This document shows, piece by piece, positions 36,532-38,319 of a stretch of DNA of 64,000 nucleotides; positions within the stretch are counted from its first letter, which is position 1, and the number at the start of each line of letters is the position of its first letter. The position numbers were made by a program, and so were the translations under genes. Source of the DNA: Escherichia coli. GTDB lineage: Bacteria > Pseudomonadota > Gammaproteobacteria > Enterobacterales > Enterobacteriaceae. The notes beneath the pieces are model-generated. The model was not told where the DNA came from. It did not search any database and worked only from the letters and a program-made list of their open reading frames with translations. Location of the stretch: NCBI RefSeq assembly GCF_024700885.2, contig NZ_CP117016.1; one strand, written 5' to 3'.

Positions 36532-38319
36532 TTATGCAAAATCCTCAAGGTGGCGACTGATACTGTTTTCACGGTAACAGGTCACCAGTAATTCACGGGT
36601 TGCCCGGGTGAACGCCACATAAAGCACCGGAATCACTTCAGACTCATCCGCTGCACCAGAGTGCACGAAAGACGCATTGATAACCGCCACATACGGGAAC
36701 TCCAGCCCCTTGCTGCTCTGGTACGTCAGTAAATGCACCACATCCTTACGTCGCGAGTATGTCTTCTTGCCTTCCCTGTCAAAACAGGTGGCAAAAGGTA
36801 CCCCGCGTAGTGTCATAACGTCCTGCAATTGTTGCGCTGAACGCTCTGTCGGACACAGCACAGCCATATCACTCCAGTGACCACACAGGACATGGCGCTT
36901 CTCCAGCCAGTCTGCAACTTGTCTGGCTTCATCACGTTCAGAAGCACAACGCAGGATTTCCGGCTCTGTACCCTCTTCACCGCCCGCCTGTGGCTGAACG
37001 AGCGGTATTTCACGGTTCTGATGTTTTTCAAAATACTCGCGGGAGAATGCATAAGCAAAGTGCAGAATGCGTTTCGGATTACGATAATTGACCGGCAGGA
37101 CAGAAGTGCGTCCCTGTGCCTGAATCCCCACACTGGCCAGAGAAAAGTTCAGGGCCCGCTCCCGCCGGTAAATGGACTGGGCGTCATCGTACATCAGGAG
37201 CAGTGAACGGGATGCGTTATCAAACAGACGGGCAATCAGGGCCAGCCAGCGACTGTCAAAATCATGCCCCTCATCCACCAGTACAGCATCATATCCGGTT
37301 CGGGTGATTTTTCCGCTGTTCACGGCCTCTTCCAGTGCACTGAAGCATTTATCAGGATATTCTTTTCTGTCGGCCGTCACCTTAATACCGTGGCGTTTTA
37401 CCATTGAGGCACACCAGCTGTGAAAATGGGATACCGTAACCCGTGATGCCAGCCCTCTGGCTTCAATGCATTCCCGCAGATAGCTGGCCAGGGTAATGTT
37501 GTAGCACAACACCAGAATCTTTCCGGGTGTGGTTTCAGCCAGGTAAAGGCAACGGAACAAAAGAATCATGGTTTTTCCGGAACCGGCCACACCATGAATG
37601 ACACGATGCCCGTCACCAATATTTCTGGCCAGAATCTCCTGCTGAATATCCATAATTTTGATTTGTGAGTTCTGTTTCACGGTCACTTCAGGAAACAGAT
37701 GGGCGCGCAGAATATCTCTCATCCGGGGTGTCACCCGGGTTCTGAATCCCGTGGTAAACATCCCGGCAATTTTTTGCCGGAATACTTCAGGTAAAACAGA
37801 CTGCGTCATTTCATCCTGGCAGATTGTCTGTGCTGAAGGAAAAATTTTTTCCACCGCATTCTCATCATTCCCTGCCAGTGTCTTCAGTTGCTGACGGGTA
37901 ATGCGGGTAAACACCACACCATACGCCCAGGCCAGGTTCAGCCGTCCCTTATACTGACCGTCATTCTGCCGTAAGCACGGGTTTGCAGGTAAGGCATTAA
38001 CCGTATCACAGGCATAACGACGAACCTGTACCAGCGGATTGATTTCTGATTTCAGAAGACCGTCGGTTTCCAGCGTGACCTGCTCCTGATTTACCTGGCG
38101 CAGCGTGGAAACCGTCCAGTCCTTGACCTCCAGAAATACCAGTCCGTTCTCCGGGTCAATAATGACAAAATCCGGATGCCGGTTTTTCCGTCCCACCGGA
38201 ATATCGTACCAGACAAGGCAGTCATCATTCAGAAAGCTCTCCAGTCGTGAAGCTACCCTCCTCTCCCCGGGCGTCATTCTCTCCTCAGTGGACGCCGATA
38301 CATTTATCAGTTTCGCCAT
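36532..38319 (-). CDS. NERD (nuclease-related domain) fused to UvrD/Rep-like SF1 helicase
   Basis: 595 aa; N-terminal NERD-like region (RVASRLESFLNDDCLVWYDIPV...HPDFVIIDPENGLVFLEVKDW); helicase Walker A HGVAGSGKTM, Walker B VLVDEGHDF, and C-terminal motif LYVAFTRATREL. Confidence 0.75.
   Translation of the reverse strand: MAKLINVSASTEERMTPGERRVASRLESFLNDDCLVWYDIPVGRKNRHPDFVIIDPENGLVFLEVKDWTVSTLRQVNQEQVTLETDGLLKSEINPLVQVRRYACDTVNALPANPCLRQNDGQYKGRLNLAWAYGVVFTRITRQQLKTLAGNDENAVEKIFPSAQTICQDEMTQSVLPEVFRQKIAGMFTTGFRTRVTPRMRDILRAHLFPEVTVKQNSQIKIMDIQQEILARNIGDGHRVIHGVAGSGKTMILLFRCLYLAETTPGKILVLCYNITLASYLRECIEARGLASRVTVSHFHSWCASMVKRHGIKVTADRKEYPDKCFSALEEAVNSGKITRTGYDAVLVDEGHDFDSRWLALIARLFDNASRSLLLMYDDAQSIYRRERALNFSLASVGIQAQGRTSVLPVNYRNPKRILHFAYAFSREYFEKHQNREIPLVQPQAGGEEGTEPEILRCASERDEARQVADWLEKRHVLCGHWSDMAVLCPTERSAQQLQDVMTLRGVPFATCFDREGKKTYSRRKDVVHLLTYQSSKGLEFPYVAVINASFVHSGAADESEVIPVLYVAFTRATRELLVTCYRENSISRHLEDFA

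Follow-up and report, generated by a model that had tools for sequence, protein, structure and literature searches.

What does a bacterium gain from a gene that combines a nuclease and a helicase in one chain and sits among the genes of a protein secretion system? The question is raised by a stretch of Escherichia coli DNA of 64,000 nucleotides (assembly GCF_024700885.2, contig NZ_CP117016.1; hereafter "the window"), where a gene of 595 codons on the minus strand encodes a nuclease-related domain (NERD) followed by a UvrD-type helicase of superfamily 1 (SF1). An original prediction, made from the sequence alone, described the product as a single-polypeptide nuclease-helicase of the "Nhi-like" immunity type and suggested that it might be co-expressed with a small gene downstream. 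The answer reached below, in which we place about even confidence, is that the gene would encode a self-contained, horizontally mobile, single-gene nuclease-helicase that acts on invading DNA, whether of phages or of plasmids.

Nuclease and Motor in a Single Chain

All of the helicase motifs quoted in the original prediction are present in the 595-amino acid open reading frame (ORF), and Pfam models for NERD and for the UvrD families agree that a NERD nuclease and a complete SF1 core share one polypeptide. Structure modelling, another of the proposed checks, yielded confident models with a PD-(D/E)xK fold at the N-terminus, whose absence would have told against the prediction, and a Rep-like fold at the C-terminus.

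Within the N-terminal domain, Pfam places NERD at residues 17–110 (E-value 6.4e-10). In an alignment of 60 diverse homologues, D50 is invariant, and E19, E64, K66, and Q98 reach 90% conservation or more; the domain thus carries the full E...PD...ExK...QxxxY signature that marks the PD-(D/E)xK superfamily. A sequence search with the N-terminal profile against PDB chains gave no match, and comparison of folds alone was informative. The nuclease core is followed by an alpha/beta extension (residues 116–217) that matches no Pfam family and is modelled with a predicted local distance difference test (pLDDT) score of about 90; it is conserved across the family and would take part in DNA handling.

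The motor that follows is unusually small at 378 residues and is matched by the Pfam families UvrD-helicase, AAA_19, UvrD_C, and UvrD_C_2. Its motifs include Walker A (residues 243–250), DEGHD (349–353), DDAQSIY (Q381), NYRN (R413), SKGLEF (G538), and TRA (T571, R572), and invariant positions in the 60-sequence alignment comprise G243, G246, G248, K249, D349/E350, Q381, R413, G538, and T571/R572. Residues 342–511 align to UvrD 213–376 and residues 496–585 to Rep 519–615, and there is therefore no space for a 2B subdomain. Moreover, positions 99–208 of the Pfam UvrD-helicase model, which correspond approximately to subdomain 1B, are covered by only ~23 residues. On these alignments the motor is a bare SF1A core devoid of both 1B and 2B. 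Every NCBIfam cutoff for a repair helicase was missed widely, the best match being PcrA at 65 bits where 911 are needed, and identity with a housekeeping UvrD, Rep, PcrA, or HelD was ruled out by score, by the missing 1B and 2B subdomains, and by the accessory status of the gene.

The RefSeq counterpart of the product, WP_001390303.1, is named "3'-5' exonuclease" and has 581 amino acids owing to a later start. The 595-amino acid form is the better supported, with the RefSeq start probably 14 codons too short (38278..38319), because M1 and A2 are kept in at least 90% of the aligned homologues and the longer frame has its own Shine-Dalgarno sequence, AAGGTG, 5 nucleotides before the ATG at 38319. 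A sigma-70-like site lies ~100 nucleotides upstream of that ATG, as a consensus match only; the upstream region holds fewer promoter-like matches than shuffled sequence does, and so the promoter assignment is weak evidence. The region from 36100 to 38400 is 100% identical to E. coli BEC1-S17-ESBL-09 and to the O104:H4 outbreak lineage.

An Accessory and Mobile Gene

In E. coli the gene belongs to the accessory, mobile part of the genome. Of 5426 complete genomes, 592 (~11%) have it in essentially full length, whereas that of strain K-12 lacks it, and it is thus no housekeeping repair helicase at a fixed core-genome position in this species, the outcome that would have contradicted the original prediction. 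In ~490 further genomes (~9%), including those of O157:H7, O55:H7, O111:H8, and O127:H6, only the first ~265 codons are left, the remainder having been cut off by IS66. The same search of E. coli gave 15 plasmid matches, and single genomes had as many as three matches. Synonymous divergence (dS) between E. coli alleles reaches 0.63, far above that of typical E. coli core genes, at a ratio of nonsynonymous to synonymous divergence (dN/dS) of 0.09–0.17; together these values indicate repeated horizontal transfer under purifying selection. Across the family, homologues occur on 135 plasmid records, and no full-length copy was found among 50,697 phage records.

Several individual loci illustrate this distribution. 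The O157:H7 remnant (locus L086, 6994..7791) is a NERD-only ORF that lies beside tRNA-Phe, an integrase, and the OI-122-type effector genes espL2, nleB, and nleE. In strain SMBL, a helicase allele with 87% nucleotide identity is found at another locus, directly between an IbrB-like gene and an IbrA gene. The window also has an IbrA gene (PAPS-reductase fold, with weak matches to BrxP and DndC) and an IbrB gene (ParB-like), which lie ~3.5 kb from the helicase gene (Table 1). Proximity of Ibr genes to the helicase was not seen in other genera.

The Family and Its Relatives

The best PADLOC model for the protein is PDLC01087, "C3a187 NERD+UvrD" (E-value 1e-139), which aligns residues 1–594 with positions 1–556 of its 559, and the N-terminal 216 amino acids alone match it with an E-value of 1.4e-39. 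The protein has the two-domain layout and the size of C3a187 members, with intact PD-(D/E)xK NERD residues fused to UvrD-type motifs I–VI, and the corresponding NCBI family is named "nuclease-related domain-containing DEAD/DEAH box helicase". The relatives discussed here were drawn from 1.84 billion cluster representatives, among which 568 clusters at 50% identity reach an E-value of 1e-30 or lower, almost always as single chains of ~600 amino acids; at an E-value of 1e-10 or lower, the family has ~3,300 members. The C3a187 label denotes a cluster from a survey of genes adjacent to type III CRISPR (Shah et al. 2018), and a later study lists UvrD and NERD domains among putative CRISPR auxiliary genes. 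That the family was flagged independently in both capacities speaks for a defence role. Whereas adjacency to type III CRISPR-cas is the defining trait of C3a187, no cas gene is annotated within 20 kb on either side of the gene studied here, and none recurs across 80 related loci. A role as a CRISPR accessory was rejected, the required partners not being found in the annotated neighbourhood.

The name "Nhi-like" refers to a layout shared with Nhi (Millman et al. 2022). Nhi itself (SERP2475 of Staphylococcus epidermidis) is a protein of 606 amino acids in which an N-terminal PD-(D/E)xK domain precedes a DUF2075/PF09848 helicase that is structurally closest to Dda, Upf1, and DNA2, all of SF1B (Bari et al. 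2022). It is sufficient on its own for immunity, for which both of its activities are needed, and limits the accumulation of phage DNA. Direct comparison was made with SERP2475 and with two Vibrionaceae homologues, from Vibrio and Aliivibrio, taken from a preprint supplement. BLASTP against Nhi gave a non-significant E-value of 0.89, hhalign recovered the generic SF1 motor core only (probability 96%, 14% identity), and hhalign of the two nuclease domains found no similarity (probability 0.06%). Likewise, the match of PF09848 to the NERD-UvrD protein was not significant (E-value 0.012), and the PADLOC model of Nhi, PDLC02372, was absent both from the 25 best matches of the whole protein and from all matches of its N-terminal domain. 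The two proteins are alike in architecture only, each being a single chain of ~600 amino acids with an N-terminal PD-(D/E)xK domain ahead of an SF1 helicase, but the helicase is of the SF1A UvrD/Rep type here and SF1B-like DUF2075 in Nhi, and there is no C-terminal glyoxalase-like domain here. The "Nhi-like" label is therefore sound as an analogy of layout and fails as a statement of family membership, which was rejected because there is no DUF2075/PF09848 helicase and no sequence or profile homology between the nuclease domains. Nhi would still provide the best functional analogy, as a shared design in a different family.

Other nuclease-helicases and defence helicases were considered as well. 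RecB, AddA, and AdnAB have a C-terminal nuclease, exceed 1100 amino acids, keep both 1B and 2B, act in complexes of several subunits, and belong to the core repair genes, whereas the protein described here has its NERD domain at the N-terminus, comprises 595 amino acids, and is standalone and accessory. Matches to the NCBIfam recB and addA models had E-values of 1e-5 or weaker, far under the cutoff, and identity with these enzymes was rejected on the grounds of the N-terminal NERD nuclease, the scores, and the lack of a conserved partner. GajB of the Gabija system is likewise a UvrD-like defence helicase; matches to PADLOC GajB models were partial (best E-value 2.8e-21) and no OLD/GajA-like gene is present in the annotated neighbourhood, and Gabija was rejected. 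The reverse transcriptase (RT)-associated NERD helicase (PADLOC RTasNERD-Hel; UG34 cluster 485) was also rejected, with a partial match at an E-value of 6.3e-15 and no RT annotated nearby. Finally, structural comparison of the N-terminal domain puts the Group III Schlafens (SLFN11 and relatives) first; they also rank high for the whole chain and similarly join an N-terminal nuclease to a C-terminal SF1 helicase-like domain. The Schlafens differ in being eukaryotic and larger and in having a DUF2075-type helicase, to which the only sequence link is the PF09848 match given above, and their active-site triad differs from the residues in the NERD-UvrD protein.

A Defence Islet within a Secretion-System Island

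A tRNA-Phe island with an adjoining integrase harbours the gene, which lies between two clusters for type VI secretion systems (T6SSs), Sci-1 and Aai/Sci-2. The features of the gene and its surroundings are collected in Table 1.

Table 1. Features of the NERD-UvrD gene and of its neighbourhood in the window.
Feature	Position	Strand	Basis and remarks
NERD-UvrD fusion gene, 595 amino acids	36532..38319	minus	Uninterrupted ORF; Pfam domains; full-length match to PADLOC PDLC01087
Predicted NERD / PD-(D/E)xK nuclease core, residues 1–115	37975..38319	minus	E19, D50, E64, K66, Q98xxxY102
Alpha/beta extension of the nuclease domain and linker, residues 116–217	37669..37974	minus	Conserved G134, R205, P210
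Minimal SF1A (UvrD/Rep/PcrA-type) motor core, residues 218–595	36532..37668	minus	All seven motifs; 1B and 2B missing
Putative own expression signals	38325..38442	minus	Consensus matches only: AAGGTG at 38330..38325; TTCACA, 16 nucleotides, AATGAT at 38442..38415
Small gene, 101 amino acids (WP_001420595.1)	36162..36467	minus	Starts 64 nucleotides after the helicase stop codon
PD-Lambda-1 (coiled coil and GIY-YIG/T5orf172)	38513..39757	minus	PADLOC E-value 5e-88; directly upstream
137-amino acid ORF, signal-peptide-like N-terminus	39913..40326	minus	NCBIfam PRK10040, 3.6e-25 (below cutoff); phrog_6000; between tssE and PD-Lambda-1
ImpA_N/VasL-like ORF, 455 amino acids	34740..36107	minus	Intact; three "pseudogene" fragments in RefSeq for an identical strain
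Kiwa-like pair	33132..34525	minus	
KwaA-like membrane protein, 186 amino acids	33965..34525	minus	PADLOC E-value 3e-10
KwaB-like protein, 276 amino acids	33132..33962	minus	PADLOC E-value 2.4e-12
IbrA and IbrB	31230..33091	minus	

Together with its neighbours, the gene forms a small defence islet inside the secretion-system island. On its upstream side is PD-Lambda-1, annotated only as a "GIY-YIG nuclease family protein", and ~2 kb downstream is a Kiwa-like pair that RefSeq lists as "hypothetical" and that falls within a patch of low GC content (0.37). Pfam finds nothing in the KwaB-like protein, including DUF4868, and the assignment of this protein is by PADLOC models alone. PD-Lambda-1 and the helicase occur together in 137 genomes, against the ~592 that carry the helicase, and the two are therefore independent of one another. 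An obligate pairing was rejected on the strength of these counts and of Cedecea, which keeps only a 48-codon remnant of PD-Lambda-1.

The same gene order, tssE, helicase, vasL, is found in Cedecea neteri (helicase 65% identical) and in a Cedecea-like genome (58%), and the T6SS proteins of both Cedecea-type loci are 42–80% identical to those of the window. Homologues of the VasL-like ORF, of 462–469 amino acids and 42% identity, sit at the same position in Cedecea, and for this reason the ORF may be a real gene. The cargo between tssE and vasL varies. In the window it consists of the 137-amino acid ORF, PD-Lambda-1, and the helicase gene; in C. neteri (locus L006), of the PD-Lambda-1 remnant and the helicase gene; in locus L098, of a 159-amino acid ORF and the helicase gene; and in E. 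coli A19, of the small gene only. The junction behaves like a cargo hotspot inside the secretion cluster.

The small downstream gene had been linked to the helicase in the original prediction, and this link is not supported. No terminator-like site is present between the two genes, and read-through transcription is therefore possible. The homologues of the small gene are, however, confined to Escherichia; strain A19, which has no helicase gene, carries the small gene immediately between tssE and the vasL-like gene; it is absent beside the helicase gene in strain SMBL, plasmid pE100416_79, C. neteri, and L098; and in FDAARGOS_448 it is frameshifted next to an intact helicase gene. The small gene is a component of the T6SS backbone, not a partner of the helicase. 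A two-gene operon was rejected, as the small gene is restricted to Escherichia, is part of that backbone, and is dispensable for retention of the helicase.

Neighbourhoods across the Family

Neighbours were surveyed at 80 loci from other species by all-against-all clustering of ORFs. The most widespread neighbour family reaches six of the 80, apparently those of Bradyrhizobium; a conserved partner was sought anywhere in the family and none emerged, which argues for a self-sufficient gene. Individual relatives have a variety of defence genes beside them, these examples having been partly picked by eye. For example, relatives adjoin a type II restriction enzyme and an Avs4-like NTPase, one adjoins DarT-Macro and another a TIR protein, and a relative on a conjugative Vibrio plasmid has a DNA methylase and an HNH nuclease nearby.

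Two further loci have known defence families next to the homologue. On the megaplasmid of Ralstonia solanacearum (L095, 4155..15463), a 40% identical homologue lies between a toxin-antitoxin-like pair and a Mokosh type I MkoA gene; MkoA is full-length (E-value 0), lies ~550 nucleotides downstream, and is followed by a gene of 454 amino acids. In Acidovorax sp. Leaf191 (L040, 10001..13563), a full-length Old-type ATPase-TOPRIM nuclease is encoded 30 nucleotides downstream on the same strand (E-value 4e-186). The Acidovorax arrangement resembles Gabija or the pairing of a class 2 OLD protein with UvrD, but the helicase there carries a nuclease of its own.

One relative departs from the family in its active site. 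Encoded between xseA and guaB (L099, 7001..8827; protein P0163), it has Q19 and R66 in place of E19 and K66 and no Pfam NERD match, and may be a nuclease-dead derivative in a housekeeping context.

A Proposed Mechanism and Its Alternatives

How might such a protein work? The C-terminal half is an ATP-driven SF1A motor with all seven motifs intact, and would track 3'→5' on single-stranded DNA (ssDNA) as expected from UvrD, Rep, and PcrA. Subdomains 1B and 2B, which regulate and auto-inhibit Rep and UvrD, are missing, and the motor may act as a compact translocase whose DNA is handled by the N-terminal domain and its extension. The NERD active site, complete and of the metal-dependent type, would cut nucleic acid that is fed or loaded by the motor. 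Replication or recombination intermediates could be degraded in this manner, as they are by Nhi and by RecB/AddA, and comparative genomics indicates that no partner gene is needed. We infer the 3'→5' polarity, the DNA substrate, the foreign origin of the target, and any means of telling self from non-self. The immunity reading of the original prediction is plausible, being favoured by the accessory distribution, the island, and the flanking PD-Lambda-1 and Kiwa-like genes.

Several observations weigh against a mobile defence gene. Within the enterobacteria, the helicase looks as if it has long been co-inherited with the T6SS cluster rather than being subject to fast turnover. The gene is found in 112 records of Ralstonia megaplasmids, a count of records and not a share, and its neighbours are shared in at most six of the 80 loci, so that in certain lineages it may reside stably. 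Several relatives are found in housekeeping surroundings, such as cobW/GntR, RND/MFS/UDG, xseA/guaB, and, in Bradyrhizobium, RluD. Moreover, in a randomised sample of ten loci, in which immediate neighbours were compared with controls ~8 kb away (PADLOC E-value of 1e-8 or lower; ORFs filtered by GC content at the third codon position), PADLOC matches were obtained for two of 20 neighbours and one of 20 controls, with no clear enrichment, and one of the two proximal matches was to a generic kinase domain. Because this control did not bear out a family-wide enrichment, confidence in the defence reading was lowered. Finally, no experiment on any member of this bioinformatically catalogued NERD-UvrD family, and no tested function, was found in the searchable literature. 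The weakness of the family-wide neighbourhood evidence and the lack of a published experiment are the reasons for confidence that is no more than even.

The rival explanations differ mainly in what the protein would cut and for whose benefit. It could be a non-essential repair or recombination helicase-nuclease without an immune role, a one-chain counterpart of RecB, AddA, or AdnAB that is gained and lost among lineages and acts on breaks, gaps, or stalled forks in the cell's own DNA. This is unlikely for a gene that is intact in only ~11% of E. coli genomes, is often destroyed by IS66, and is borne on islands and plasmids; the product scores far under the repair-helicase cutoffs and has an N-terminal NERD in place of a C-terminal RecB-type nuclease, and the gene directly adjoins defence genes in E. 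coli, Ralstonia, and further genera. Alternatively, the protein could be an accessory or back-up effector of another immune system, be it type III CRISPR, a defence RT, an OLD nuclease, or Mokosh. The best PADLOC model does come from the type III CRISPR accessory list, there is the partial match to the RT-associated NERD helicase (E-value 6e-15), and both the Acidovorax Old gene, placed as in Gabija or class 2 OLD pairs, and the Ralstonia MkoA lie close by. This reading is nevertheless quite unlikely, given that the commonest neighbour family is limited to six of the 80 loci and no partner recurs, that no cas, RT, OLD, or Mokosh gene is found within 20 kb on either side at the annotated homologous E. 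coli loci, that plasmids and other chromosomal sites carry the gene by itself, and that it is independent of PD-Lambda-1.

The structural likeness to the Schlafens raises the idea of a Schlafen-11 counterpart, in which the motor free of 1B and 2B would sense ssDNA, replication stress, or phage replication intermediates and the N-terminal nuclease would then cut RNA (tRNA or phage RNA), with translational shut-off and growth arrest or abortive infection as the outcome and not DNA degradation. We regard it as very improbable; were it true, residence in the T6SS clusters of E. coli and Cedecea might reflect protection from the DNA of lysed neighbours. A role in the secretion system itself, either in handling the DNA of killed prey or in countering incoming effectors that target DNA, is the least likely of the readings. 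In its favour are the tssE-helicase-vasL order in E. coli, C. neteri, and a third, Cedecea-like genome, and a helicase identity (58–65%) that falls inside the range for T6SS proteins. Yet the link is limited to the enterobacterial clade and was not seen at any of the other 79 loci, an otherwise comparable T6SS cluster of E. coli has no such gene, and the gene persists where the T6SS has decayed and also occurs on plasmids. Moreover, Pfam detects no PAAR, Rhs, or MIX-type delivery domain in the protein, and the site is shared with a validated phage-defence gene, PD-Lambda-1.

Implications

If the NERD-UvrD protein is protective by itself, it would constitute a third one-chain nuclease-helicase design in immunity, beside Nhi (SF1B/DUF2075) and Hna (SF2), and one built on a UvrD/Rep repair-type motor from which both regulatory subdomains have been removed. 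Should repair turn out to be its function, the protein would offer a minimal model of RecB/AddA logic in one chain of 595 amino acids. The family concerned is large and spans Proteobacteria and Cyanobacteria, and its E. coli carriers include clinically important strains such as O104:H4, with O157:H7 retaining the remnant cut by an insertion sequence. Finally, the tssE-vasL junction of the enterobacterial T6SS cluster can be seen as a landing site for defence genes.

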